In this document: positions 2,371-35,772 of the stretch, in pieces
Layout: each line of letters starts with the position of its first letter
Numbering within the stretch: the first letter of the stretch is position 1
Source of the DNA: an uncultured bacterium
GTDB lineage: Bacteria; Abyssobacteria; SURF-5
NCBI GenBank assembly: GCA_964453435.1
Contig: CAYVQZ010000011.1
Coordinates: forward strand, 9,235 to 73,234
Direction of reading: 5' to 3'
DNA: 64,000 nt
Notes under the pieces: model-generated
Database searches by the model: none
Told to the model about the DNA's origin: nothing
Seen by the model: the letters and a program-made list of their open reading frames with translations, nothing else
Made by a program: the position numbers and the translations under genes

Positions 2371-5148
2371 TCAAAAGGTGTTCGTTGAGCCCTTGAACTC
2401 AATTCCCCGCGAAGGTCGCAGGCCGTCATCCCAGCCGCTGACGTTTTCCCTCAGCATGCCGAGCATGTCGAGGGTGTGCGGATCGTTTGGAATGACCCTG
2501 AGGATGGTGTTGCATGCGAGGAGCGCCCGGCGCATGTCGTTTTTGGCATGTGCGCGAGCGGCCTCGGCCAGATGAATCTCTCTGAACCGGTCTTCAAGTG
2601 ATTTGCGCAAGAGGAACGCTTCGAGATTTCCCGAGTCGGCCTTTTGGGCGAGACGTGTTTGATTAATTGCCTCTTCCAAAATGCCCTTGTTCCGCCAATA
2701 GTGAGCCGAAATCAAATGGTCCGAGGCGGTCATGAATCGCCGATATTTGCGTGCGTTCCGGATGGCCTCTTCTTCCGTGTCGCCGAAATGATACACGTAA
2801 GGCTCATTCATGCGGCTCTCGAAGATGAATTCGCCGAGGCCGGCGCCGTCATTGCGGAAGTATTCGATGTAGGGGTGGTTATCCGTGTTGATTGGAACAT
2901 CACGGAACAATGAAGCGGGCGCACTTTCGTTCATGAGGTGACATGCGAGAAGGTTATACGGATTGCCCAGGCCCACTCCTGCGAGCGCCTTTTGGACTTT
3001 CGGTTCGGACATTCGCTCTTCGAGATGTTTGAAGTCGATTGTAATGGGTTTTTCGGAGCCGATCAGCAGAAAATAGCCGCGGTCGCTGGTGAACCAAACC
3101 GAGAAATACGGAAACGAATGCCTGAACGTGTTGAAGAGCAACAGGTCCTCCTTGTATGAGAGCAGATGGTAGGGCACCCAAAGCGCCATGACTCCGCCGG
3201 GCCTCAATCTGTCGCTGCACATGTCGTAAAATTCCTTCGTATACAACGACACGTTTCCCGCAAACTTGGGAGATGTCGCGTCAACAGTGATTACATCAAA
3301 ATCCCTGTCGGTTCGAAGGAGATAGTTGCGCCCGTCTTCTATAATGAGGCTAAATCTCGGATCATTGAGGACATCGTGGTTTACGCTTCGGAGCAGGGGA
3401 GCGGCTTTTGGAACCTCGACGCACAGTTCGACGCAGGTTATGCTGTCGACATCGTACAAGCTGACGTTATATGAAGTTCCACCGGCGCCGAAACCGACGA
3501 TGCAGACATCCTTCGGTTCGCGGTGCAGCAACATGGGATAGTGCGCCAGCGCCCGCTGAATCTCTGGGCCCCGCATATTCATTATATTGCCCGAGCAGGC
3601 GACGGGATAGCCATCGATGCTGATTTCGCGAATTCCCGTGGACTTGTTGTCGAACACTTTAACGGTTGCCCCGATTCCTTCTTTGTAATAGACGACCTTG
3701 CCGATGTCTTCGAGGGGGCTGGTGAACTGGATGCCGGAGAGTCTGAAGACAGCTATGCCGAAGAACAACACCGCCGGCGCTGTCCCCACAAATATAAGAG
3801 CTTTTCTTCTTCCGTGTATATGGGGATGCATGAAATATGCTGTCGCTCCGACCACGACGTTTATGCACCCCAGAAGCAGGATGCTTTTCCCTATTCCCAG
3901 CAGGGGAATCAACACGAAGCCGGACGCGAACGAGCCGAGGATGCATCCGATCGTGTTTACGGAGTAAATCGTGCCGACGCTCTTTCCGATCCGCTGCAGG
4001 CTTTGCGCGCATATCCTCACGACAACGGGAAAAGTCGCTCCCATAAGAAACGCGGGAATCAGCATGGTCAAAGACGCCTTGACGAATTTGTTGGCGCTGG
4101 GAAGCCAGCTGATCACTCCGAACGACGGAAACAGCCGTTCGAGGCTATAGAAGAACTTTCCGAAAATGGGCAGGGAAAGGATCGCCGTGACACCTATCAA
4201 AACCTCGAGCGCGCAAAACAGCGAAAGCGCATCTTTGTTTCGGTCCGATATCTTGCCGAACACCAGGCTGCCGAGGCCGATACCCAGCAAAAACGTTGTC
4301 AACATTGTCGTGAACGCGTAAATGCTTATGTTCATGTGAAACAGGAGCGCGCGCATCCACAAAACCTCGTATGCGAGTGAACAGAAGCCGGAAATTCCAA
4401 ACAGCAGCATGACCATCATGACAATGCGCCGGGGATATTCCGCGCGGCTCTCACTCGGAGCGGCCGAAATCGAATCGGTTGCGGTCGCCTTCATGGGCAG
4501 CGTTCGCATTGCGGAGATGAGATACGTGAGGATGCCGACGGCAAGGTTTGCAATCACCGCAATATGGATGGTGCGAAGCACACCGAAGCGGCCGATGAGG
4601 AAAAAGCCCGCCGCCGCGCAGCCGGCGACCGCCCCCAAGGTGTTTATCGCATACAGGCTTCCGGTGCTCCAACTTATATCCTTCAGGCGGCTCGTCACGA
4701 ACTTGCTCAGCACGGGCAATGTCGCTCCCATCAAGGTTGTGGGCAGGAGCAACACGGCCACCGCCAGGACGAATCGTGACAGCGAAAGCATGTAAAACGA
4801 CGGGTTCTCTCCGCGAAACAGGAAAGCGTACAAAACGTCGAACCGGTTGAGCACGAAAGGCAATGCGAGCGCGTAAACGCCAATGCCTAATTCCAGAATA
4901 GCGTAAATTTTCAGGGGGTTCCGGCTCCGGTCAACGATGCGGCCGAACAGGTAGCTCCCGAACGCAAGCCCGCCCATAAAGGTGGTCAGCACGGCGCTCG
5001 TGGCAAAAACCGACGCCCCGAATATGAGGGTCAGCAGCCGAATCCACGTGACCTCGTAAAGGAGGCCACACATGCCGGACACGAAAAAGCATACCCACAA
5101 AAAAGCAATTACGAATTTTTGATATCTTGCTTCCGAATTTCCAACCAC
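2371..5148 (-). CDS. Fused MFS-like polytopic membrane domain / spermidine synthase-like (polyamine aminopropyltransferase family) protein with C-terminal TPR-like region
   Basis: 925 aa. About 450 aa of hydrophobic helices come first. A spermidine-synthase-like domain follows (GFGAGGTSYNV...CVELCVEV...DPRFSLIIEDGRNYL...DFDVITVDATSP...YTKEFY...LRPGGV). The C-terminus is helical repeats. Confidence 0.7.
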   Translation of the reverse strand: MVGNSEARYQKFVIAFLWVCFFVSGMCGLLYEVTWIRLLTLIFGASVFATSAVLTTFMGGLAFGSYLFGRIVDRSRNPLKIYAILELGIGVYALALPFVLNRFDVLYAFLFRGENPSFYMLSLSRFVLAVAVLLLPTTLMGATLPVLSKFVTSRLKDISWSTGSLYAINTLGAVAGCAAAGFFLIGRFGVLRTIHIAVIANLAVGILTYLISAMRTLPMKATATDSISAAPSESRAEYPRRIVMMVMLLFGISGFCSLAYEVLWMRALLFHMNISIYAFTTMLTTFLLGIGLGSLVFGKISDRNKDALSLFCALEVLIGVTAILSLPIFGKFFYSLERLFPSFGVISWLPSANKFVKASLTMLIPAFLMGATFPVVVRICAQSLQRIGKSVGTIYSVNTIGCILGSFASGFVLIPLLGIGKSILLLGCINVVVGATAYFMHPHIHGRRKALIFVGTAPAVLFFGIAVFRLSGIQFTSPLEDIGKVVYYKEGIGATVKVFDNKSTGIREISIDGYPVACSGNIMNMRGPEIQRALAHYPMLLHREPKDVCIVGFGAGGTSYNVSLYDVDSITCVELCVEVPKAAPLLRSVNHDVLNDPRFSLIIEDGRNYLLRTDRDFDVITVDATSPKFAGNVSLYTKEFYDMCSDRLRPGGVMALWVPYHLLSYKEDLLLFNTFRHSFPYFSVWFTSDRGYFLLIGSEKPITIDFKHLEERMSEPKVQKALAGVGLGNPYNLLACHLMNESAPASLFRDVPINTDNHPYIEYFRNDGAGLGEFIFESRMNEPYVYHFGDTEEEAIRNARKYRRFMTASDHLISAHYWRNKGILEEAINQTRLAQKADSGNLEAFLLRKSLEDRFREIHLAEAARAHAKNDMRRALLACNTILRVIPNDPHTLDMLGMLRENVSGWDDGLRPSRGIEFKGSTNTF

Positions 5149-22726: not shown

Positions 22727-24415
22727 ATGCGAGCGATAGCGGTGTCCGTATGTTTGTCGTTCATTCTGTTATCACCTTCCTTCGCCCATCCATTGGCCCA
22801 AGAGTATCACATGTTGGACACCGAGGAAGCTTTTACGATCGGTCAGGGAAATTTCCGAACCGATGTCGAGTTTGGAGTTACCAAGCAGCCCGACGCGTCG
22901 GAGCTTTATAACATTCCCCGCTTCCGTCTCATCTACGGATTAAGCGAGTGGGCCGATATCGAATTCGAGTACGATTACCTCATCCTCAGGGACGGCGATT
23001 TCGTCGACTTCAGCAGCGGAGTTCGCAAGGAAAGCTACGATGAGGAGGGAACAGGCGACCTCAGGATAAAAGTCAAAGTCGTGCCCTGCGAATTTGGTAT
23101 CCACCGTCTCGGGATTCAAGGCATAGCAAAGCTGCCGATGGCGGAACAAGACAAGGGCTTGGGGACGAATGAAACAGATTTCACATGGCAAATTCTGTTT
23201 TCCAGCGATTGGGGGCTTCTAAAAACCCATCTCAACGCCGGATTTGCCGTGATAGGCGACCCCTCTCGAAACGGGAATCAAAACGATTCACTTGTCTGGG
23301 GTGTCGGCGGCGAGTACGCGTTGACCGATTCGTTAACGCTCATGGCGGAAATAGAAGGTTCCACGGATGCCGAGCAGAGCACCGTTGGGTCCACCGAGAG
23401 CGTTGCCGAGAGTTCGGAGGGAGACGCGCGTGCGCGGGTACGGCTCGCGTTGACCGGACCTATTGGCGCTTGGAGATGGGGCGCAAGTGGTTTTAAAGGG
23501 GTAAACGGTCATACCGAAGACTGGGGCGTTCAGGTCGGCATGAGCAAAACGTGGGGACTCGGCGGGCCGACCGACCAGGCGACTCCGCCCGCAAGGGAAA
23601 AAGGCAAAGCGGCGGTTAAGTCATATTATAATCCTCTCAAGACAGAGGAAGCATACACAATCGGTGAGCGAAACTTCCGTTCCGAACTCGGGTTCGGATA
23701 CGTCAACCAGCCGGATGATTCCGATTTATACATCATGCCGGATGTGGTGTTGGGATGGGGCATCGGACCATGGGCGGATTTGGAAGTCGGCGTACAGTAT
23801 CTTTTTGTTGAGGACACCGCCACGTTTGACGCTGACGGGTCTGTTTTGAACGACGACATCGACAAGGACGGAATCGGCGATGTGCGGGTGAAAGTCAAGC
23901 TCTCTCCCTTTGGCTGCAGATACGGAAGACTGGGCCTTCACCTTGTTACAAAGGTTCCGAGCGCGGATGATGACCATGCCCTCGGTACGGACGAAACCGA
24001 TTTTATAGCAAAAGGACTGTTCTCCACCGATTGGCATCAGGTTTTTGGAAACTCGCTCCTCGGGCGGCTGAAAACGCACGTGAATGCCGGCGTCGCGGTT
24101 CAGTCCGACCGCCGGCAGGTTGGCGCCCAGCAAGATTATCTGGTGTGGGGAGTAGCCGGAGAGTACGGTGTAACGCGCGTGCTTACTCTATGGGCGGAAG
24201 TTGAAGGGGCGACCAACGGAAGGAACACCAGAAATATTTCCGAGGGCGATTTCGGAAATGCACATGCCGAAGCGCGTCTCGGACTCACGGGGCCCATGCC
24301 TCACATCGGCTTCCTGCACGATTGGAAATGGGGCGCCTCCGCGTCCGTGGGGTTGAATAACCATTCGCGCGATTGGACCGCCAACCTGGGATTCAGTCAT
24401 ACGTGGGGAGAATAA
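22727..24415 (+). CDS. Secreted, likely outer-membrane beta-barrel protein with internal tandem duplication (transporter-like, MetA/phenol-degradation-pathway-like family suspected)
   Basis: 562 aa. Signal peptide MRAIAVSVCLSFILLSPSFA. Two homologous ~280-aa halves: EEAFTIGQGNFRTDVEF...DLRIKVKV...LGTNETDF...LKTHLNAGFAV...LVWGVGGEYALT...LMAEIEGST versus EEAYTIGERNFRSELGF...DVRVKVKL...LGTDETDF...LKTHVNAGVAV...LVWGVAGEYGVT...LWAEVEGAT. Alternating hydrophobic pattern and aromatic C-terminus (SHTWGE). Confidence 0.5.
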   Translation: MRAIAVSVCLSFILLSPSFAHPLAQEYHMLDTEEAFTIGQGNFRTDVEFGVTKQPDASELYNIPRFRLIYGLSEWADIEFEYDYLILRDGDFVDFSSGVRKESYDEEGTGDLRIKVKVVPCEFGIHRLGIQGIAKLPMAEQDKGLGTNETDFTWQILFSSDWGLLKTHLNAGFAVIGDPSRNGNQNDSLVWGVGGEYALTDSLTLMAEIEGSTDAEQSTVGSTESVAESSEGDARARVRLALTGPIGAWRWGASGFKGVNGHTEDWGVQVGMSKTWGLGGPTDQATPPAREKGKAAVKSYYNPLKTEEAYTIGERNFRSELGFGYVNQPDDSDLYIMPDVVLGWGIGPWADLEVGVQYLFVEDTATFDADGSVLNDDIDKDGIGDVRVKVKLSPFGCRYGRLGLHLVTKVPSADDDHALGTDETDFIAKGLFSTDWHQVFGNSLLGRLKTHVNAGVAVQSDRRQVGAQQDYLVWGVAGEYGVTRVLTLWAEVEGATNGRNTRNISEGDFGNAHAEARLGLTGPMPHIGFLHDWKWGASASVGLNNHSRDWTANLGFSHTWGE

Positions 24416-24695
24416 ATCCTCCGGGAAGGGACTGGTTGGCAAGAGCCCTTCGCCGCCTCCTGAAACAAACCGCGTCTTCGTGCTGGTCTTTCTCCGCGTC
24501 CTTGTCTGATTCGGTCGTGTTGTGCAAAAAGACTGTTTTTTTTCATAGTATCTTCGCTTCGTTCCCGGCGCAGTCCTCTCTTCGTCCGTTCAGATTGCCG
24601 CTTGAGTTTTCATGGGCGTTCCCCTATAATAAAAACAAAATTATAGTCCTTTGAATGCAAAAGGGTTACGACATTTGCAGCGCGAAGGGAGGTAG

Positions 24696-25592
24696 ATGAA
24701 ACGCCTGATTCTGGGGGGGGTGGCGGCGGCGCTGATATTCATTTTTACGAGGTTGTCACCCGCAGCCGCCGGCCGCATCGGGATTATAATAGGCGACATA
24801 GCGAGGATGGTGGATAAGCGCCACCGTGTCGTTGCGCGCAAGAATCTCAGAATGGCCTTTGGCGGGCAGAAGTCCGAGGCCGAGATAAACCAGATAATCA
24901 AAGAAGTCTTCCGAAATATCGGTCAGACCGCGACGGAATTTTTTCAAATCCCCGCTCTAACATACGAGAAAGCGCGCGCGATCATCACTCCGGAGTTTCG
25001 CGAGCGATTAGATGACTGCCTCAGAGCCGGGAAGGGGATCGTGCTCGTTGCGTCACATTTCGGCAACTGGGAACTCATGGCGGCTGCGGGCGCAGTGGCG
25101 GGATACAAGATATCGGCGGTAGTGCGGCCGCTCGATGACCCGGTTCTGGAGGAGATCGTGCAGGAGACCAGAGAATCTTCCGGGTTACGCATTATTCCGC
25201 GTCGCATCTCGGCTCTGGCAGCCGTCCGGCGGCTGAAACAAAACGAGATCGTCGGCATCCTTGCCGACCAGAACACGCGGAAACAGAATGTATTCGTCGA
25301 TTTCTTTGGTATAAAGACCGCCACCACGCCGGGACCCGCGTTGCTTGCTCTGAGAACCGGCGCAATTCTGTTGCCTGTTTTTATGATGCGAGAGGGACCC
25401 GGCAAACACAGATTGATTGTCGAAAAACCGATCGCGGTCGTTCGCAGCGGCGACGAGGAATCCGATGTCGTTGCAACGACCCAAAAATGTGCTGATATTC
25501 TGGAAGAGTATGTGCGGAGGTTCCCGTCCCAATGGTTGTGGGTCCACCGGCGGTGGCGCACCAGGCCCCCCGGCGAGGAGCCCACGTACTGA
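24696..25592 (+). CDS. Lipid A biosynthesis late (lauroyl/myristoyl) acyltransferase, LpxL/HtrB family
   Basis: 298 aa. N-terminal transmembrane anchor. HFGNWE matches the HX4D/E catalytic motif of lysophospholipid/lipid A acyltransferases. Confidence 0.7.
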   Translation: MKRLILGGVAAALIFIFTRLSPAAAGRIGIIIGDIARMVDKRHRVVARKNLRMAFGGQKSEAEINQIIKEVFRNIGQTATEFFQIPALTYEKARAIITPEFRERLDDCLRAGKGIVLVASHFGNWELMAAAGAVAGYKISAVVRPLDDPVLEEIVQETRESSGLRIIPRRISALAAVRRLKQNEIVGILADQNTRKQNVFVDFFGIKTATTPGPALLALRTGAILLPVFMMREGPGKHRLIVEKPIAVVRSGDEESDVVATTQKCADILEEYVRRFPSQWLWVHRRWRTRPPGEEPTY

Positions 25593-25613
25593 GCGAATCG
25601 CAGAGGAAAATCA

Positions 25614-26570
25614 ATGAGAGAGGGCAAGGACTTCAAGCCGGCTGATCTCAATCGAGTTCGTACGCACAGCATACATGGCAGAAAAACGAAGGTATCCGTG
25701 CGTCAATTTGCCTCGGCGCCTCCGCCTCATGCGGGATTTGCGGAATTTATCGGGTCACTTCCCGACGTGTTGGCGGCCTCGAACCTGAAACGGGTCATCC
25801 GCGATATTGTCTCCGCAAAGAAAAAAGGCAGGCCGATAGTTGCCGCGCTCGGAGGCCATGTGGTGAAATGCGGGCTTGGCCCGGTGCTCGTCGATTTGAT
25901 GGAGAGAGGCTTCATCACGGCGGTGGCGATGCATGGCGCCACTGCGATACATGATTACGAAATCTCGCTCGTGGGACGAACCTCCGAAGATGTCGCAACC
26001 GTTTTGAAAGATGGCTCATTCGGGATGGCGCGCGAAACTCCGGCAGCGTTCAAACGCGCTGCCGAGGAAGCCGCACACAGAGAGCTCGGACTCGGGAAGT
26101 CCCTCGGAAAGTTGATCCTCTCCGAAGAAACCCCTTGCCGTGAGCACAGTGTTTTGGCCGCGGCAGCCAGGCTCGGGCTGCCCGCCGCCGTGCTGCTGGC
26201 TCTCGGGACCGATACCATCTGTATGCATCCCGACTTCTGTCCCGATACGCTGGCACGCGCCAGTCATCTCGATTTCCGCATCCTCGTGTCCGTTGTGTCC
26301 CGGTTGGAGGGCGGCGTCTGGATGAATATCGGGTCTGCCGTTGTTTTACCCGAAGTCTTCCTCAAGGCACTCAGCCTCGCACGCAATCTTGGCTCAAAAG
26401 TCGAGAAATTCACAGCAGTCAATTTAGACATGCGCCAGCACTATCGCCCGAACACGAACGTCGTTGGTCGGTCTACCAGGCAAGGGTATTCCATTACCGG
26501 CCATCACGAGATCATGCTTCCGCTTTTGCGCATGGGGATCATTTCGGCGGCCGAGAGGAAAACCAAATGA
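25614..26570 (+). CDS. Deoxyhypusine synthase-like (DHS fold) protein, divergent paralog
   Basis: 318 aa. The segment KKKGRPIVAALGGHVVKCGLGPVLVDLMERGFITAVAMHGATAIHDYE aligns to the DHS NAD-binding core, cf. CTIIVTLSGAMTIAKMGKVLCEMIDEGMAHIIVSTGALMAHG in the second paralog at 33820-34890. Only 22 bp downstream of the acyltransferase, and it overlaps hldE by 4 nt. Confidence 0.5.
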   Translation: MREGKDFKPADLNRVRTHSIHGRKTKVSVRQFASAPPPHAGFAEFIGSLPDVLAASNLKRVIRDIVSAKKKGRPIVAALGGHVVKCGLGPVLVDLMERGFITAVAMHGATAIHDYEISLVGRTSEDVATVLKDGSFGMARETPAAFKRAAEEAAHRELGLGKSLGKLILSEETPCREHSVLAAAARLGLPAAVLLALGTDTICMHPDFCPDTLARASHLDFRILVSVVSRLEGGVWMNIGSAVVLPEVFLKALSLARNLGSKVEKFTAVNLDMRQHYRPNTNVVGRSTRQGYSITGHHEIMLPLLRMGIISAAERKTK

Positions 26571-28069
26571 AAGCACAACTTCTGACGCTGCTCGAGTCGA
26601 TTCGCGCTCCGAATGTCCTGGTTGTCGGAGACATGATGCTCGATGTCTACGTATGGGGCCATGTCGACCGAATTTCGCCCGAAGCTCCGATCCAGGTGCT
26701 GAAGGTGGAATCGGAAGAACCGCGACCCGGCGGGGCAGGGAATGTAGCAAATAATCTCGTTGCATTGGGAGCACATGTCTCATGCTGTGCGGTTGTCGGC
26801 GATGACCACAATGGCCGCTCGCTGTGTCGGATGCTCGAGAAAATGGGAATCGACTCCTCCGGCGTATTGCGCGACAAGGCCAGGCCGACCACGGTGAAAA
26901 CGAGAATGATCGCCCACGGCCAACAGCTGCTCCGGGTCGACCGCGAAGATGACTGCCCGCTCGATAAAGGTCTCGGGGAAAAAATGATTCAACACATCGA
27001 GGACCGCCTTCCGTGGTGCGATGTGGCGCTGCTTTCTGATTACGCAAAAGGGACGATTCCCGACCGCTTGCTCACGGAGATTCTCGCGCGTTGCAAGAAG
27101 GGGAAAAAACCTGTCTTGATCGACCCATCACGGCATCGTAATTACCGTCTTTATAACGGGTGCACCGTATTGAAACCAAACAGAGCCGAAGCGGAGTCGG
27201 CCGCCGGCGTCAAGATAGAGAACGAGAAGTCACTGAAAGCGGCGGCTGCAAAAATCATGAACACGAGCAAGCCCTCCTATCTCGTGATAACCCGAGGCAG
27301 CGAGGGGATGACCATCTTCGACGGTTCAAACGCGCCTCAGCACATAGCCGGTTTAAGCCGCACTGTTTTCGACATAACCGGCGCCGGCGACACCGTTCTC
27401 TCCCTGCTCGGGTTTGTTCTCGCCGGCGGAGGAACAATGCGCGAAGCGGCCGAGATCGCCAATGTGGCAGCCGGGATATCCGTTGGCAAGGTCGGCGCCG
27501 TCCCGGTGTCGAAAACCGAGATTATCGGGGATTTGTTGAGCGTGCAGCACATGGCGTCGCACAAGCTGAAGTCGTTCGATGAGATCGAGTCCGTCTGCAA
27601 GGAGCATCGCCGGCAAAAAGAGAAAATTGTCTTTGCCAACGGATGTTTTGACTTGCTCCATGCCGGCCATATCAAGTTGTTCCAGTTTGCGAAAAACATG
27701 GGCGAGGTTCTCGTTGTCGGTTTGAACTCGGACGAATCGGTCAGAAAACTGAAGGGGCCCGGAAGACCTGTCCTGGGACAGAATGAACGCTCTTTTCTGC
27801 TCTCCGCCCTCGAACACGTTGACTACGTTGTGGTATTCGAAGAAAGGACACCTCTCAAACTGATTAGGAAAATAAGGCCCGATGTCCTCGTGAAGGGAGC
27901 GGACTACACGAAAGACACCGTGGTAGGGCGGGAATTCGTCGAGTCATACGGCGGACGAGTCGAACTTGCGCCTCTTGTTGACGGCGTGTCCAGTTCGGAT
28001 ATCATGTCGCGGATCGCCGGTCATGGCAAGGATACCCGAAAGCAGGGAATTGGGAAAAAATATGAATGA
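26567..28069 (+). CDS. hldE: Bifunctional D-glycero-beta-D-manno-heptose-7-phosphate kinase / D-glycero-beta-D-manno-heptose-1-phosphate adenylyltransferase
   Basis: 500 aa. N-terminal pfkB carbohydrate kinase domain. C-terminal cytidylyltransferase domain (VFANGCFDLLHAGHIKLFQFAK). Confidence 0.9.
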   Translation: MKAQLLTLLESIRAPNVLVVGDMMLDVYVWGHVDRISPEAPIQVLKVESEEPRPGGAGNVANNLVALGAHVSCCAVVGDDHNGRSLCRMLEKMGIDSSGVLRDKARPTTVKTRMIAHGQQLLRVDREDDCPLDKGLGEKMIQHIEDRLPWCDVALLSDYAKGTIPDRLLTEILARCKKGKKPVLIDPSRHRNYRLYNGCTVLKPNRAEAESAAGVKIENEKSLKAAAAKIMNTSKPSYLVITRGSEGMTIFDGSNAPQHIAGLSRTVFDITGAGDTVLSLLGFVLAGGGTMREAAEIANVAAGISVGKVGAVPVSKTEIIGDLLSVQHMASHKLKSFDEIESVCKEHRRQKEKIVFANGCFDLLHAGHIKLFQFAKNMGEVLVVGLNSDESVRKLKGPGRPVLGQNERSFLLSALEHVDYVVVFEERTPLKLIRKIRPDVLVKGADYTKDTVVGREFVESYGGRVELAPLVDGVSSSDIMSRIAGHGKDTRKQGIGKKYE

Positions 28070-28655
28070 TGTGGCGGTGTTTCTCGATCGTGACGGAACG
28101 CTTAACGAGGAACGAGGCTATCTCAATCATCCTGACAATCTGTATCTTATTGACGGCGCGGCGGAAGCCGTTGCCCTGCTGAATCGCTATGGCCTCAGAG
28201 CAATTGTGGCGACCAATCAGTCCGGGGTCGCTCGAGGATATTTCCCGGAAGCGTTACTTTCGCGGCTCCATGAAAAACTGCAGGGGCTTCTGGAGGAGAG
28301 GGGTGCGAAGTTGGACGCGGTCTACTATTGCCCCCACCATCCCGAGGTTGGCGAGCCGCCATACCGGCAGACGTGCGAGTGCAGAAAACCAGCGGTCGGA
28401 ATGATTCGCAGGGCTGAACGGGAGTTCTCGGTCGACGCCTCCCGGTCATACGTGGTCGGCGATAAACTCAGCGACATCGAATTCGGCAAGGGCGCAGGAT
28501 GCAAGTCCGTCCTTGTCCTGACCGGCTACGGGAAAGGCGAGTGGGAATTCAACCGGCGCCAGTTGAACTGCGCGCCGGACCATGTTGCCGCCGATATTCT
28601 GGACGCTTCAAAGTGGATTGTTGGCGACGTGGAAGCACAGAAACGACGGAAATGA
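28062..28655 (+). CDS. gmhB: D-glycero-D-manno-heptose 1,7-bisphosphate phosphatase (HAD family)
   Basis: 197 aa from ATG 28062. HAD motif FLDRDGTLN and Zn-binding CxH...CxC (YYCPHHPEVGE...CECRKP). Overlaps the hldE stop. Confidence 0.85.
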   Translation: MNDVAVFLDRDGTLNEERGYLNHPDNLYLIDGAAEAVALLNRYGLRAIVATNQSGVARGYFPEALLSRLHEKLQGLLEERGAKLDAVYYCPHHPEVGEPPYRQTCECRKPAVGMIRRAEREFSVDASRSYVVGDKLSDIEFGKGAGCKSVLVLTGYGKGEWEFNRRQLNCAPDHVAADILDASKWIVGDVEAQKRRK

Positions 28656-30151
28656 AAGTATTGTTCATTTATCCGAATCTCGACGCCCAGATAGGCTTCA
28701 ATTACGGTATCGCCTTTCTTTCCGCCTGTCTCAAGCGACACGGGCACGCAACGGCTCTCCTCAATATCAACGACCAGCTTGGGTTTCCGATGGACCTTGC
28801 AAGGGTCGCCGACGAGGTGACCTCGTTTGCGCCCGATGTGATCGCGTTCTCGGTGGTAACAAATCAGTACCGTTTCGCCCGCATGATCGCCCGCGACATC
28901 AAGCGCTACTGTTCCGCTCCCATCGTCTGCGGCGGCATCCATCCCACGATGGACCCCGAGGGAGTTCTTCGGGAAGAGTGTTTCGATTATGTTTGTGTGG
29001 GCGAAGGCGAGGAAGCCATTGTCGAGCTTGCAGACACGCTCGCCGCCAGGAAACCGGTTGCCGAAATCGAGAACATCTGGTGCAAGACGAACGGCGCGAT
29101 TGTCCGCAACAGGGTGCGGCCGTTTGTCTCGCTCGAGTCATTGCCTCCGAAGGACTACGAAATCTTTGATTTCCAGAAAATGGTCGATGCGAAGGACGGC
29201 TGGGTCGGCGTCATGAGTTCGCGCGGATGCCCGTTCAGTTGTACCTATTGTTTCAACCATAAGCTGCGCGAGCTGTACCAACACGACCTCGAATGCCCGG
29301 CGGCGAAGCTGAACTACATCCGCCGCCACCCGGTCGATACCGTCATCGGGGAGATCGAATGGCTGCTGGCAACTTACAAGAACATCAAAACTATTATCTT
29401 TGACGATGACCTCTTCACACTTGACAAAAAGTACCTCGCAGAGTTTTGCAGAAAATATCAGGCTCGAGTGAGCCTGCCATTCGTTTGCAACGCCCATGTC
29501 AAGGTCTTCGATGAGGAGGTTGCTCGAAGCCTGAAAGACGCGGGGTGCAATATGGTGAAATTCGGACTGGAAAGCGGAAGCGAGCGAATCCGGAAAGAGA
29601 TATTGAATCGCCGCATGTCAAACGAGGAAATAGCTCGGGCATTCTCCGTCGCGGACGATTTCGCATTTCACACCTCGGCGTTTGTTATGATAGGATTCCC
29701 GCATGAATCGATCAACGACGTCCGGGACACCATCGAGCTGCTCGCCCGGATCAAGCCCGGCCGGTTCCGCTGGTCCATTTTTTTTCCCTACGTCAACACG
29801 CGAGCATACGAAATAGCGCGAGACGGCGGTTTCATCGACTTTCGCAAACTGGAGTCGTTGACAAATTTCACCGACGAATCGGCGCTCGACTTCGGCCCCG
29901 AGCACAATTCTTTTCTGCGACGGCTGAAAGTCACGTTTCCATGGCATGTTAACGCGCGCGCCGGCTTCTCCGGCTCTCATCTCTATCAAAGCCTTATCGA
30001 ACAAACCGATAAGATCGAAATGGAGAGGTGGCCGGAGGCCGAGGAATACATCATCAAGATTGACGGCGAGATTTCGAGGGCGCTCACTCTGGCGGGCGAG
30101 CCCCATTACGCCTACCGGTACAACCTGTTTACGGCGGTGAGAAGCTATTAG
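28652..30151 (+). CDS. B12-binding domain-containing radical SAM protein
   Basis: 499 aa from ATG 28652. N-terminal cobalamin-binding Rossmann-like domain (MKVLFIYPNLD...). Radical SAM cluster motif CPFSCTYC (CX3CX2C). Overlaps the gmhB stop. Confidence 0.7.
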   Translation: MKVLFIYPNLDAQIGFNYGIAFLSACLKRHGHATALLNINDQLGFPMDLARVADEVTSFAPDVIAFSVVTNQYRFARMIARDIKRYCSAPIVCGGIHPTMDPEGVLREECFDYVCVGEGEEAIVELADTLAARKPVAEIENIWCKTNGAIVRNRVRPFVSLESLPPKDYEIFDFQKMVDAKDGWVGVMSSRGCPFSCTYCFNHKLRELYQHDLECPAAKLNYIRRHPVDTVIGEIEWLLATYKNIKTIIFDDDLFTLDKKYLAEFCRKYQARVSLPFVCNAHVKVFDEEVARSLKDAGCNMVKFGLESGSERIRKEILNRRMSNEEIARAFSVADDFAFHTSAFVMIGFPHESINDVRDTIELLARIKPGRFRWSIFFPYVNTRAYEIARDGGFIDFRKLESLTNFTDESALDFGPEHNSFLRRLKVTFPWHVNARAGFSGSHLYQSLIEQTDKIEMERWPEAEEYIIKIDGEISRALTLAGEPHYAYRYNLFTAVRSY

Positions 30152-30212
30152 CGCCAGTAGCAATTTCTCCAACATCCTTGTTCGGCTTCCCAACTGGGTT
30201 GGCGACGTCGTC

Positions 30213-31214
30213 ATGGCGACTCCCACACTGCGCTGCCTCCGGCTCAATTTCCCTCATGCGCGGATCGACCTCACACTTGTTCCATATGTACGCGAGATTG
30301 TGGAAGGTGCCCCATGGTTCGACGCCATCGTCGAATATGAGGCCGGTTCGGGCTTCGGCGGACTCGCAAAATCAGCCGGCTACCTTCGCAGGCTGAGACG
30401 GAACCGGTATGACCTTGCCATTGTTCTTCCCAACTCCTTCAGTTCGGCGCTTCTCGCGTTCCTGTCCGGCGCGAAACGGCGAGTCGGATATGACCGGCAG
30501 GGACGCGGTTTCCTGCTTACCGACGCGGCGCCCGCGCCCGTCGAGAACGGACGCTTTGTCCCCCAGCCGATGGTCGAGTACTACCTCAACCTGTGCGACG
30601 GGCTCGTGGAATCGCTGGGCTCACGAAAAACGGAACTCTTCGTTGACTCCCGCTCTGAGCAAAGGGCGGACGAGTTGTTCGACAGGTACGGGATTGGACG
30701 GTCAAAGCCGGTGGTCGCCATAAACCCGGGAGCGGCCTACGGCTCGTCCAAGCTGTGGATTCCCGACCGGTTCGCTGCGGTCGCAGACCATTTCGCCGGA
30801 GACGGACGGTGCGACGTCGTGCTGCTGGGCGCGCCGGCTGAAGCCCCTATTGCCCGCGAGATTGTCGGCGCTGCTCGCACGGATATCGCGAACCTGGCAG
30901 AGGAACATGTCGGACTCGGCCTCCTGAAATCCATTATCAAGCGGTGCGACCTCCTGATCACCGTCGATTCCGGACCCCGCCATTTCGCTGTTGCGTTCAA
31001 TAAACCCGTCGTGGTCTTGATGGGACCGACGGACCCCCGCTACACCAACTGCAACCTTGACAAGACCACCGTGGTCAGAGTTGAAAACCTCGAATGCGCT
31101 CCGTGCCACATTAAGCAATGCCCCACCCATCATGAATGCATGACGCGCATCACCGCCGATATGGTCATTCAAGCCGCCACCGAATTGCTGCAAAGACACG
31201 TCAAGGCGGATTGA
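30213..31214 (+). CDS. Lipopolysaccharide heptosyltransferase, glycosyltransferase family 9 (WaaC/WaaF-like)
   Basis: 333 aa from the first ATG. The conserved GT9 N-terminus (ILVRLPNWVGDVVMATPTLRCL, cf. ILIIRLSSIGDVVLTTP) is encoded upstream of that ATG, in frame back to a stop at 30138-30140. The true start is probably a non-canonical codon near 30147-30174. Confidence 0.8.
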   Translation: MATPTLRCLRLNFPHARIDLTLVPYVREIVEGAPWFDAIVEYEAGSGFGGLAKSAGYLRRLRRNRYDLAIVLPNSFSSALLAFLSGAKRRVGYDRQGRGFLLTDAAPAPVENGRFVPQPMVEYYLNLCDGLVESLGSRKTELFVDSRSEQRADELFDRYGIGRSKPVVAINPGAAYGSSKLWIPDRFAAVADHFAGDGRCDVVLLGAPAEAPIAREIVGAARTDIANLAEEHVGLGLLKSIIKRCDLLITVDSGPRHFAVAFNKPVVVLMGPTDPRYTNCNLDKTTVVRVENLECAPCHIKQCPTHHECMTRITADMVIQAATELLQRHVKAD

Positions 31215-31491: not shown

Positions 31492-32910
<1,419 letters not shown>

Positions 32911-33728: not shown

Positions 33729-33819
33729 GATACCCCGGTTGCGCATCTGTCCGAAATCCGATTTCGCTGAGATGTGTTCGCCGCGTTCGCCGAAACTGTT
33801 CGTTCGCCACCGGGCTCAT

Positions 33820-34890
33820 TCAGCCCTCTCTCTTTTGCCGCGTTTCGAGTATGGCGCGGACAAGCAGCGGCCACACGATTGTGGCGTCTGTGCGCACCTC
33901 GGCAAAACGGCCGCCCTCTTCCCTCGGCAAAAACTTCCCCCACGACACACCCTCGCTGTACGGACATCCGCTCAGCCCGCCCCAGTACGCGGGTTCCGGA
34001 CAGATTCGCACACCATACCGGATGCGGGGAATGGGCAGGTCCAGCCCCAGCCGCATATTAATTATGTCGATAAAGGGGCCCATCTGCTGACCCCAGTTTC
34101 TCGGAACTCCACCCCCGATCGTAAATATGCCCAGCCGCTCGGCTCGCACCACTCGTTTGGCGAAATCGTACAAATCGAGGAACGCATTGTACGGGGGCAC
34201 ATCGGAAAAGAACGCGTCGACATCCTTTTCCTTATCCGTTTTGTACTTGGCAGCCAGGAAATGCGTCGCTACATCGAGACCAAGCTCCGAATCGGTAAAC
34301 GCGGGGACATATATCGGGACCCCTTTCCGGTATGCGCATCCGAGAACACTCGGCATCAGGTCGTCCTGGAGCAGGCGCCGCCCGATCTCCGCATTCAACC
34401 TGTGCGAGCAGGCGGGCTCCGACCAGTCGACTTCGCTCAACACTTTTCGTATGAATTTCTCGGCGGCGGTAAGGTTCGCCTCCATCTCGAGCGTGTCGTA
34501 AACCCGGTTGTAGCCCCATTTATACAGCACGGTGTCGGGAGTTTTCGGGTCATACTTATAGTGCACGCATCCTATCGCCTCGGTCAGGCCATGCGCCATC
34601 AACGCGCCCGTGCTGACGATGATGTGCGCCATACCCTCATCTATCATTTCGCAGAGCACTTTGCCCATCTTTGCTATCGTCATGGCGCCCGACAGGGTGA
34701 CAATGATTGTGCAGGCGGGGTCCTCGACCATCTCGCGAAACACGAGATAGGCCTCGCCGAGTTCGCGTGCGCCGAAGGCGGTCTTCGACATCTGCGCAAG
34801 TATGTCCGCGACGTTGTCGGCGGACCGAACATCGATGGGTTCAAGCGGTTCGAGGCCGTCTTTGCGGCCGTCATGCATTTCTCGTTTCAA
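33820..34890 (-). CDS. Deoxyhypusine synthase-like protein
   Basis: 356 aa. Strong DHS-family similarity: CTIIVTLSGAMTIAKMGKVLCEMIDEGMAHIIVSTGALMAHG (NAD-binding core), FTIGGGVPRN, C-terminal EGVSWGKF. The 426-aa + strand ORF 33739-35019 is its shadow. Confidence 0.8.
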   Translation of the reverse strand: MKREMHDGRKDGLEPLEPIDVRSADNVADILAQMSKTAFGARELGEAYLVFREMVEDPACTIIVTLSGAMTIAKMGKVLCEMIDEGMAHIIVSTGALMAHGLTEAIGCVHYKYDPKTPDTVLYKWGYNRVYDTLEMEANLTAAEKFIRKVLSEVDWSEPACSHRLNAEIGRRLLQDDLMPSVLGCAYRKGVPIYVPAFTDSELGLDVATHFLAAKYKTDKEKDVDAFFSDVPPYNAFLDLYDFAKRVVRAERLGIFTIGGGVPRNWGQQMGPFIDIINMRLGLDLPIPRIRYGVRICPEPAYWGGLSGCPYSEGVSWGKFLPREEGGRFAEVRTDATIVWPLLVRAILETRQKREG

Positions 34891-35262
34891 TTGCCAAACC
34901 TCCGTTTACCGTTTTCCTTGCCTTGTATCGTTCGCGTGAGGCTCGCCCGTTCACGGGACGGAGTTTCTCGGCTGACACCTGCTCAGCCTCCAATCGCTGC
35001 CCTGCTATTCTACCCTTAAACCGTCGGTATTTTCCAATAAAAACCGACAGTCTTCCTTTTCACAGAGGGAGGGCGCAACGAACCGCAGCATCTCGCCGTC
35101 ATTAAGCGTCTTTTTTCCCCCGAACAAACGATTGAAAAGAGATAAGCTTTTCCTTTCGGCCGCAGATTCGGCCATCGCCTTCTTCTTTTCAATGAGGGAA
35201 ATACTGCAGTTGATATATCCAATTTGGGTAAATGTCCGTGGAGAATTGCCGAGGGCCTCATG

Positions 35263-35772
35263 CTATTCCATGTCGTGTTCCTCGGGAAAAAGACGGAGAG
35301 AGTTTGCGGTCTTTTCCATCCTGCGCAGAAGTGTCTCCGCTTCGTCAGTCCTGCCGGTTGCAATAAGGCTGTCAATAAGCGAGAACGCGCACAGAAGAAA
35401 AGCGCCCTCTCCGCCGGGCAGCCCGTCACCACCCTTGGAACGATAAAGCAACCCCTCGTGGCCGAGTTCGCGCCGGGTCGTTTCAATGGTCGAAACGACC
35501 CTGGCATCGTCAGCCGGAAGAAAACCAAGCAGAGGTAGCAACAGATTGCTGGAATCGAGCCAGACCGTATCATAATGCTGTGCGAAGGATTCTTTTTCCT
35601 GATTCCATCCTTTCACGAGAACTTCCTCTTTCATCCGGTCCTTCGTCTTGCGCCAACGGTCCAGGTCGCCGGGAAATCCATATCGCTCGGCTATCGTGAT
35701 TTCCCGGCCAAGCGCAACCCAGCACATAATTTTCGAATACACGAAACAATACGGTCGGCCCGAACCTCCCAA
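35263..35772 (-). pseudogene. Remnant of a glycoside hydrolase family 15 (glucoamylase/glucodextranase-like) gene; internal/C-terminal fragment only
   Basis: The 169-aa ORF matches the GH15 catalytic-domain C-terminal region (YCFVYSKIMCWVALGREI...; GGEGAFLLCAFSLIDSLIATGRTDEAETLL). There is an in-frame stop just upstream at 35821-35823. No N-terminal ~400 aa are present, and the usual last ~40 aa are missing. Confidence 0.5.

Follow-up and report, generated by a model that had tools for sequence, protein, structure and literature searches.

A 64-kb stretch of DNA from an uncultured bacterium of the Abyssobacteria lineage, referred to here as the window, harbors six co-directional genes at positions 24696-31214 of its forward strand. 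In order, these encode an LpxL-like acyltransferase, a 318-aa protein given the working label X, the bifunctional enzyme HldE, the phosphatase GmhB, a radical S-adenosylmethionine enzyme with a B12-binding domain (rSAM) and a heptosyltransferase of glycosyltransferase family 9 (GT9). ADP-heptose is the donor for the inner core of lipopolysaccharide (LPS), and the host kinase ALPK1 recognises it as a signal of bacteria. The five-enzyme pathway that generates ADP-heptose is regarded as fully described and serves as a drug target. The canonical system consists of GmhA, HldE, GmhB and HldD, with hldD-waaF-waaC grouped in E. coli. The features of the operon are as follows, where DHS stands for deoxyhypusine synthase.

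24602..24630, + strand: sigma-70-like promoter candidate TTGAGT-17-TATAAT, 10/12 consensus matches (consensus match only)
24696..25592, + strand: lipid A late acyltransferase family protein (LpxL/LpxM-like), 298 aa; PF03279, E 1e-57, 196 bits
25614..26570, + strand: X, GSU2086-family protein with a DHS-like Rossmann fold, 318 aa; NF052581
26567..28069, + strand: HldE, bifunctional heptose-7-phosphate kinase and heptose-1-phosphate adenylyltransferase, 500 aa; Pfam PfkB and CTP_transf_like
28062..28655, + strand: GmhB, heptose-1,7-bisphosphate 7-phosphatase, 197 aa from the ATG at 28062; NF006506, 179.3 bits against a cutoff of 178
28652..30151, + strand: radical SAM enzyme with a B12-binding domain, 499 aa from the ATG at 28652; PF02310 and PF04055
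30147..31214, + strand: GT9 heptosyltransferase (heptosyltransferase II-like); TIGR02195, 173.1 bits against a cutoff of 134.6; PF01075, E 1e-42

The promoter candidate lies 66 nt upstream of the lpxL-like gene, inside the 280-nt intergenic gap behind the preceding gene. The junctions that follow are tight, with a 21-nt gap between the LpxL-like gene and X, a 4-nt ATGA overlap of X with hldE, an 8-nt overlap in which the gmhB start lies over the hldE stop, and a second 4-nt ATGA overlap between gmhB and rSAM. An earlier, sequence-only reading of this DNA had described the three overlaps correctly, while counting seven genes instead of six and a gap of 22 bp in front of X.

Profile searches place most of the encoded proteins in established families. 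The best NCBIfam matches of the LpxL-like protein are lauroyl acyltransferases, with every equivalog below its cutoff (best 189.5 against 248). HldE exceeds the cutoffs of both domain equivalogs (TIGR02198, 360.4 against 345; TIGR02199, 195.6 against 181.5) and scores 459.9, under the cutoff of 521, with the full-length model NF008454. Like the ADP-L-glycero-beta-D-manno-heptose and waa genes of Proteobacteria, the operon clusters HldE, GmhB and a WaaF-like GT9, each above threshold, with a lipid A gene. Unlike that system, X and the B12-domain rSAM are embedded in it and translationally coupled, and neither gmhA nor hldD was found in the operon or elsewhere in the 64-kb window.

The six-gene order recurs in related sequences labelled Abyssobacteria, Poribacteria or simply 'uncultured', and the arrangement is therefore not a product of chance. 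It is identical in relatives L003, L004 and L006; in L005 the same order is present up to the point within GT9 where the contig stops, and in L001 and L002 it is present with no GmhB detected. The LpxL-like gene is syntenic in all six (L001-L006). As our best explanation, the operon is one transcription unit that joins late lipid A acylation, ADP-heptose synthesis and heptose transfer to two independent accessory enzymes; taken jointly with all its parts, this explanation is held with moderate confidence.

The GT9 gene differs from its neighbors in its probable start codon, an ATT at 30147 that overlaps the rSAM stop (ATTAG). The first ATG of the frame lies only at 30213, downstream of the conserved coding N-terminus ILVRLPNWVGDVV, and the TIGR02195 alignment begins at profile position 15. 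No ATG, GTG or TTG is present between the in-frame stop at 30138-30140 and the conserved N-terminus RILVRLPNWVGDVV, in the window and in four relatives. The overlap of an ATT with the rSAM stop (ATTAA) is kept in L001, L003, L004 and L006. Because the ATT over the rSAM stop is conserved and no ATG, GTG or TTG is available, translation of GT9 by re-initiation after rSAM is suggested, and the reading frame probably begins at an AUU coupled to termination of its neighbor. Gene callers, which begin GT9 at the ATG at 30213, cut off ~22 residues.

Family, fold and partners of X

X belongs to the NCBIfam family NF052581, 'GSU2086 family protein', with 370.2 bits against a cutoff of 250 over protein residues 10-306 and model positions 2-299 of 301. 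Clustered at 50% identity, the family numbers 3241 representatives with an E-value of 1e-3 or less, of which 894 reach 1e-30 or less, and its members are named 'hypothetical' or, wrongly, 'deoxyhypusine synthase' in the source records. The sequence-only reading had called X DHS-like, which describes its fold correctly but not its family, and the fold-family test proposed in that reading accordingly has a mixed outcome. From 41 homologues, AlphaFold produced a model with a predicted local distance difference test (pLDDT) value of 83.8. Foldseek comparison of this model retrieves archaeal and human DHS, the LOR/SDH-like protein 3c2q and the ornithine cyclodeaminase domains of AgrE/ArgZ (6lrf/6lrg, 6juy), at E ~1e-7, template modelling (TM) scores of 0.5-0.6 and 11-18% identity. 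The match to DHS 7cmc has an E-value of 9e-8 and a TM of 0.60, and those to human DHS have TM values of 0.55-0.58.

Sequence comparisons separate X from the DHS and homospermidine synthase family (PF01916/TIGR00321), to which it bears a weak motif match around residues 72-122. The Pfam scan of X gave no DS match at E <= 0.01 and only a sub-threshold match to the ArgZ-like C-terminal Rossmann domain, and the NCBIfam models for DHS and homospermidine synthase score 16-19 bits against cutoffs of 364-450. Aligned by hhalign with the genuine DHS encoded 7 kb away in the same window, X reaches a probability of 1.75%, which is not significant. The catalytic lysine of human DHS is Lys329, located in a C-terminal S-W-G-K motif. 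By direct reading of the sequences, the genuine DHS of the window has VSWGKF, whereas the motif is absent from X, in which K85 and K251 are the only invariant lysines. About 70 positions of X are invariant, including H82, K85, H113, D114, E116, H205, D272, H276, R278, H297, H298 and E299.

A tightly bound cofactor of the nicotinamide adenine dinucleotide (NAD) type, employed in transient oxidation, is common to DHS, LOR/SDH and the AgrE cyclodeaminase domain. The LOR/SDH-like TIGR00300 proteins and the C-terminal domain of AgrE/ArgZ are ornithine cyclodeaminases that use NAD+ or a nickel-pincer adenine dinucleotide. X resembles them in fold and in an 'A-I/V-H-D-x-E' stretch after the second strand, but only ~60 residues align (E 0.4-1e-5), and X occurs in a sugar-nucleotide context rather than one of amino acids. 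The TIGR00300 branch has recently been reported with the nickel-pincer adenine dinucleotide (Desguin 2025, cited in PMC13524815). None of the genes for this cofactor (larB/C/E) was present among the open reading frames (ORFs) scanned in the window. By analogy, a nickel-pincer cofactor for X may serve as a lead only.

The partners of X were surveyed in 80 loci from reference genomes, in which pathway genes were mapped by tblastn and labels were backed by profile searches. A heptose-pathway gene adjoins X, on the same strand and within 700 nt, in 49 of the 80 loci (gmhA 19, hldE or kinase 27, haloacid dehalogenase (HAD) phosphatase 6); the count rises to 53 if lpxK and lpxL are included. These adjacencies span at least nine phyla with differing gene orders, and 4-nt start/stop overlaps are frequent at X junctions. 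The order is LpxK/LpxL-X-HldE in Planctomycetota, LpxK-X in Brocadiales and (GmhA)-HldE-X in metagenome-assembled genomes (MAGs) of Nitrospirota and Nitrospinota, while GmhA-X, often with a 4-nt overlap, is found in ~20 loci of Vicinamibacteria, other Acidobacteriota and Desulfobacterota. Latescibacterota, Chloroflexota, Bacillota and Thermodesulfovibrionales have, in this order, a HAD phosphatase, X and a PfkB kinase, with or without a cytidylyltransferase-like gene and an SIS isomerase; the X proteins of these loci form a more distant subgroup, at 34-42% identity. Such lineage-specific arrangements argue against simple inherited synteny.

Domain fusions, sought by exhaustive profile search among 50%-identity cluster representatives with partner domains typed by BLAST against the enzymes of the window, connect X to each of the four canonical ADP-heptose activities in metagenomic proteins. 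The adenylyltransferase is the commonest partner (7/12 fusions), positioned after X in P0245, P0247 and P0270 and before it in P0284 and P0356. The isomerase is represented by GmhA-X (P0276) and X-SIS (P0352), the kinase by X-kinase (P0350) and X-kinase-adenylyltransferase (P0278), and the phosphatase by GmhB-X (P0310). The partner domains have 28-58% identity to the enzymes of the window or to GmhA. In the 826-aa metagenomic protein P0324, an ARMT1-like (DUF89) damage-control phosphatase domain precedes a cytidylyltransferase-like (adenylyltransferase) domain and X; the DUF89 domain may substitute for GmhB, in which case the three domains would follow one another as their steps do in the pathway. 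P0244 (679 aa) and P0377 (582 aa) contain two X domains in tandem.

One family member has a phenotype. Geobacter sulfurreducens carries gmhB (GSU2084), hldE (GSU2085), X (GSU2086) and gmhA (GSU2087) in that order. As in the window, a member of the X family, which NF052581 names after GSU2086, stands beside hldE; unlike the window, the Geobacter unit has another gene order, includes gmhA and lacks rSAM, LpxL and GT9, and GSU2086 is annotated as hypothetical. In a table from transposon sequencing (Tn-seq), the fitness defects of hldE, GSU2086 and gmhA are near-identical at -3.1, -3.2 and -3.7 (PMC5585712).

Two loci place X in other settings. In a Thermodesulfovibrionales MAG (L080, 4355-14325), X is part of a larger sugar-nucleotide cluster with a CBS-nucleotidyltransferase, a short-chain dehydrogenase/reductase (SDR), a GFO/IDH/MocA oxidoreductase, a CMP-sugar-synthetase-like gene, an adenylyltransferase, a reversed adenylyltransferase-kinase fusion, an SIS isomerase, a radical SAM/SPASM enzyme and a split transketolase, which suggests a modified heptose or higher sugar. 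In a Bacillota MAG (L073, 2893-10560), X occurs with a GH38 alpha-mannosidase, two PfkB kinases, a HAD hydrolase and an SIS protein, a gene set closer in appearance to the breakdown or salvage of sugars than to the making of LPS. The substrate of the distant X subgroup may be a different one.

The radical SAM enzyme and its GT9 partner

The two domains assigned to rSAM by the sequence-only reading are borne out by Pfam (PF02310, 80.6 bits against a cutoff of 32.1, E 1e-22; PF04055, 69.8 against 29.5, E 4e-19). A B12-binding domain at the N-terminus is followed by a radical SAM domain with the motif CX3CX2C (C193/C197/C200), invariant in 42 homologues, which is the class B architecture. The model of rSAM has a pLDDT of 91.9, and Foldseek matches it to TsrM, AprD4, MgmA, OxsB, CysS and TokK (E 1e-21 to 1e-15, TM 0.60-0.68, 14-20% identity), with TsrM first by E-value and AprD4 highest by TM (0.68). 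The best sequence match in the PDB is the sugar diol dehydratase AprD4 (6fd2, E 2e-19). With TsrM, TokK, CysS, MgmA, OxsB and AprD4, the enzyme shares the B12-binding Rossmann domain and the CX3CX2C barrel; unlike them, it falls far under the equivalog cutoffs and forms an orthologous group of its own, defined by its pairing with GT9. AprD4 is a dehydratase with a similar N-terminal domain, and the architecture therefore does not settle the chemistry of rSAM.

Full-length orthologues, at 47-60% identity, are common in MAGs of the Deltaproteobacteria/Thermodesulfobacteriota (Desulfobacterota) type and in anoxic-sediment metagenomes. Among the 36 rSAM loci with enough sequence, GT9 lies directly downstream in 31, with 6-39 nt between aligned ends, and also directly upstream in 10. 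A heptose-7-phosphate-kinase-like gene follows within 2.5 kb in 21 loci, usually with a heptose-1-phosphate-adenylyltransferase-like gene behind it, and the clusters also hold WaaP/Kdo-kinase-like, GT2, GT4 and LpxL genes. On the neighborhood test that the sequence-only reading itself proposed, the outcome is in its favor: the co-occurrence with heptose genes that it drew from a single genome extends to others, for X in 49/80 loci and for the rSAM-GT9 pair in 31/36.

The loci of the rSAM orthologues lack X, and of the 80 X loci only 7, all of this lineage, have rSAM nearby. The two genes are therefore separate modules, brought together in this lineage alone.

Possible roles of X and rSAM

The four canonical activities are all found beside X as separate genes or domains, and X therefore represents a fifth function. 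Two replacement roles were considered and rejected: GmhA is directly upstream of X in ~20 loci and is also fused to it, and GmhB and the kinase are both found beside X or fused to it. X is very probably a dedicated component of nucleotide-heptose synthesis. What it does there we infer from its fold class and its partners. X would work alongside GmhA, the HldE kinase, GmhB and the HldE adenylyltransferase, and would perform a redox-neutral isomerisation of heptose via a tightly bound nicotinamide-type cofactor.

HldD is an SDR that epimerises C6'' of ADP-D,D-heptose via a transient 6''-keto intermediate on bound NADP. The simplest reaction for X would be this C6'' epimerisation of ADP-D-glycero-D-manno-heptose, with X as a non-orthologous stand-in for HldD. 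With the E. coli HldD sequence as query (validated at 677 bits against NF008360), no ortholog turned up in the 1.09 Mb of X loci, up to 8 kb away from X, in 0.49 Mb of rSAM loci or in the 64-kb window. The few SDR matches to the query have 21-27% identity and are typed as dTDP-glucose dehydratase or UDP-xylose synthase. The SDR genes near X in L051 and L052, considered as a hidden HldD, were rejected on the same NCBIfam typing; they adjoin UDP-glucose dehydrogenase. X itself has no Epimerase/SDR match in Pfam or NCBIfam, TIGR02197 included, and is therefore at most an analogue of HldD and not a member of its family. No hldD annotation is present among the entries listed in the Geobacter Tn-seq supplement (PMC5585712). 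An HldD analogue is the most economical role for X because its fold relatives perform transient oxidation, its fusions favor the adenylyltransferase and the epimerase slot is empty in every cluster. By this analogy X may be the missing epimerase, an assignment that is tentative and a little less likely than otherwise; the alternatives are a different isomerisation, action at the heptose-phosphate level and non-redox binding of an ADP-sugar.

We infer that rSAM, which is translationally coupled to GT9, acts by radical chemistry on the heptose donor or on the acceptor, which would be heptose or 3-deoxy-D-manno-octulosonate (Kdo). The adjacent GT9 would then incorporate the product into the inner core. 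Enzymes of the cobalamin radical SAM class most often catalyse C-methylation. By analogy this is a possible but doubtful assignment for rSAM, and a dehydration like that of AprD4 or some other radical rearrangement has about the same likelihood.

Several observations count against these proposals. In about 25 of the 80 loci, X stands next to QueA, UvrA or PurH and has neither heptose nor lipid A genes beside it, and some of the fusions could be gene-calling artefacts from indels at ATGA overlaps. The partners of X include early enzymes (GmhA and the kinase) as well as the adenylyltransferase, and its position in the pathway is therefore not fixed. NCBIfam has no equivalog near its cutoff for rSAM, and the best matches, all weak, are ApyD, HpnJ, BchE, PhpK, the ladderane radical SAM enzyme and AprD4. 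Its closest relatives include the non-methylating enzymes AprD4 (the diol dehydratase), BchE, HpnJ and OxsB, and we know of no C-methylated core heptose.

It is possible, if unlikely, that X is not a redox enzyme and that its pocket binds ATP, ADP or the ADP moiety of ADP-heptose, in which case X would be a channelling subunit, a sensor, a regulator or a non-redox catalyst, acting for example in quality control or in hand-over to the transferase. ADP-heptose resembles the ADP-ribose half of NAD, the sequence likeness of X to its NAD-using relatives is limited to the first 60 residues of the Rossmann core, and fusion to every enzyme of the pathway instead of one fits a scaffold or subunit as well as a fifth catalyst. 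However, the ~70 invariant positions are rich in His, Asp, Glu and Arg, as in an active site and not in a passive binder, and all characterised relatives of the fold are enzymes with a bound cofactor.

A comparably low probability attaches to the view that rSAM performs a non-methylating radical reaction on the sugar. The candidates are an AprD4-like 1,2-diol dehydration of the heptose C6-C7 side chain to give a deoxy-heptose, a radical epimerisation, an HpnJ-like ring rearrangement and a BchE-like oxygen-independent hydroxylation or oxidation. This view is consistent with AprD4 as best PDB sequence match and highest TM, with NCBIfam scores against HpnJ, BchE and AprD4 that are as good as those against methyltransferases, and with a family seen in anaerobe-type MAGs only. 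However, AprD4 depends on a partner reductase, of which no counterpart is conserved next to rSAM, the Pfam match to the B12-binding domain is strong (E 1e-22), and the top structural match by E-value, TsrM, is a cobalamin-dependent methyltransferase.

The model put forward by the sequence-only reading, in which X transfers an aminobutyl group from spermidine by NAD-dependent DHS chemistry, rSAM methylates, and heptose or Kdo-lipid A carries both decorations, is very improbable. It agrees with the DHS-like fold of X and with the presence of polyamine genes elsewhere in the window, namely the genuine DHS (33820-34890, -) and a fusion of a major facilitator superfamily (MFS) protein with spermidine synthase (2371-5148, -). 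Aminobutyl or polyamine chemistry finds no support in X, which misses the DS threshold, has a non-significant hhalign result and lacks the SWGK lysine. A decorating role for X is not supported by its partners, which across phyla, in neighborhoods and fusions alike, are the enzymes that make ADP-heptose, with no LPS-decorating gene and no polyamine gene among the recurring neighbors and no link to eIF5A; joint action with rSAM is likewise unsupported, the two modules being independent. The wider prediction of an undescribed modification of heptose or core remains fair for rSAM, whereas the evidence on X points to nucleotide-sugar synthesis itself. That X and rSAM are unrelated passengers, placed in this operon by chance as the ~25 X loci without heptose neighbors might suggest, is effectively refuted by X adjacencies in differing orders in at least nine phyla (in a genome of 3000 genes, X would by a rough estimate fall beside one of ~5 pathway genes by chance at ~0.3% of loci), by the domain fusions, by a GSU2086 fitness phenotype like those of hldE and gmhA, and by the rSAM-GT9 pairing.

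The superfamilies of X and rSAM are known, as is this kind of operon; for X, the record extends to a family name and a single line in a phenotype table. Literature searches returned no paper linking X or the rSAM family to heptose, in agreement with the claim of the sequence-only reading that neither gene is part of a described core pathway, apart from the Geobacter Tn-seq table, where GSU2086 is listed as 'hypothetical' (PMC5585712). If the proposed roles are correct, X would bring into the pathway a fold that is not known to have been linked to sugar metabolism, and the operon would encode undescribed chemistry of the LPS core, possibly a variant of ADP-heptose. To our knowledge, no radical enzyme has yet been given a part in the assembly of the LPS core, so that rSAM would become the first, and its coupling to the heptosyltransferase predicts a new core modification in anaerobes. 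A widespread extra enzyme would mean that the pathway is wired differently outside Proteobacteria, and textbook heptose and inner-core biosynthesis probably lacks steps in many non-model bacteria. A broader and rather speculative extension, unlikely when all its parts are taken together, is that many non-proteobacterial Gram-negatives and some monoderms use X as a DHS-like fifth enzyme, with NAD or the nickel-pincer dinucleotide, that replaces HldD or makes another isomer, and that anaerobes add a cobalamin/radical SAM step that introduces a change at a carbon, such as C-methyl or deoxy, into inner-core heptose. The function of X is testable, and GSU2086 of Geobacter provides a ready genetic system.

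Other features of the window and of related loci

Upstream of the operon, the window contains housekeeping genes for FtsK, a MiaB-like protein, PgpA, CinA and DnaE; downstream are tyrosine phenol-lyase, the genuine DHS on the other strand and PBP1. The features outside the operon are as follows.

2371-5148, - strand: 925-aa protein with an MFS-transporter-like N-terminus (below the Pfam cutoff) and a spermidine/spermine synthase domain; polyamine-related and far from the operon
22727-24415, + strand: 562-aa protein between dnaE and the operon; no Pfam or NCBIfam match
31495-32910, + strand: tyrosine phenol-lyase, directly downstream of the operon and found downstream in L002 too; TIGR02618, 755 bits against a cutoff of 720.7
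33820-34890, - strand: genuine deoxyhypusine/homospermidine-synthase family gene, 2.6 kb downstream of the operon; PF01916, E 8e-69
35263-35772, - strand: 169-aa ORF matching the middle of the GH15 glucoamylase profile only (positions 180-339 of 427)

The 562-aa protein is kept at the same position in L001, L003 and L004. Visual inspection shows a start that resembles a signal peptide and two halves similar to each other (YHMLDTEEAFTIGQGNFR... and YYNPLKTEEAYTIGERNFR...), and it may be an outer-membrane protein. The genuine DHS gene is overlain by a longer, spurious antisense ORF of 426 aa (33739-35019, +), and the 169-aa ORF may be a gene fragment or a pseudogene. In locus L081 (14009-17223), a kdsB-kdsA-?-kdsC cluster holds, according to precomputed Pfam assignments, a TAL_FSA (transaldolase-like) protein with a CBS domain in the slot usually occupied by KdsD, the SIS and CBS domain arabinose-5-phosphate isomerase.

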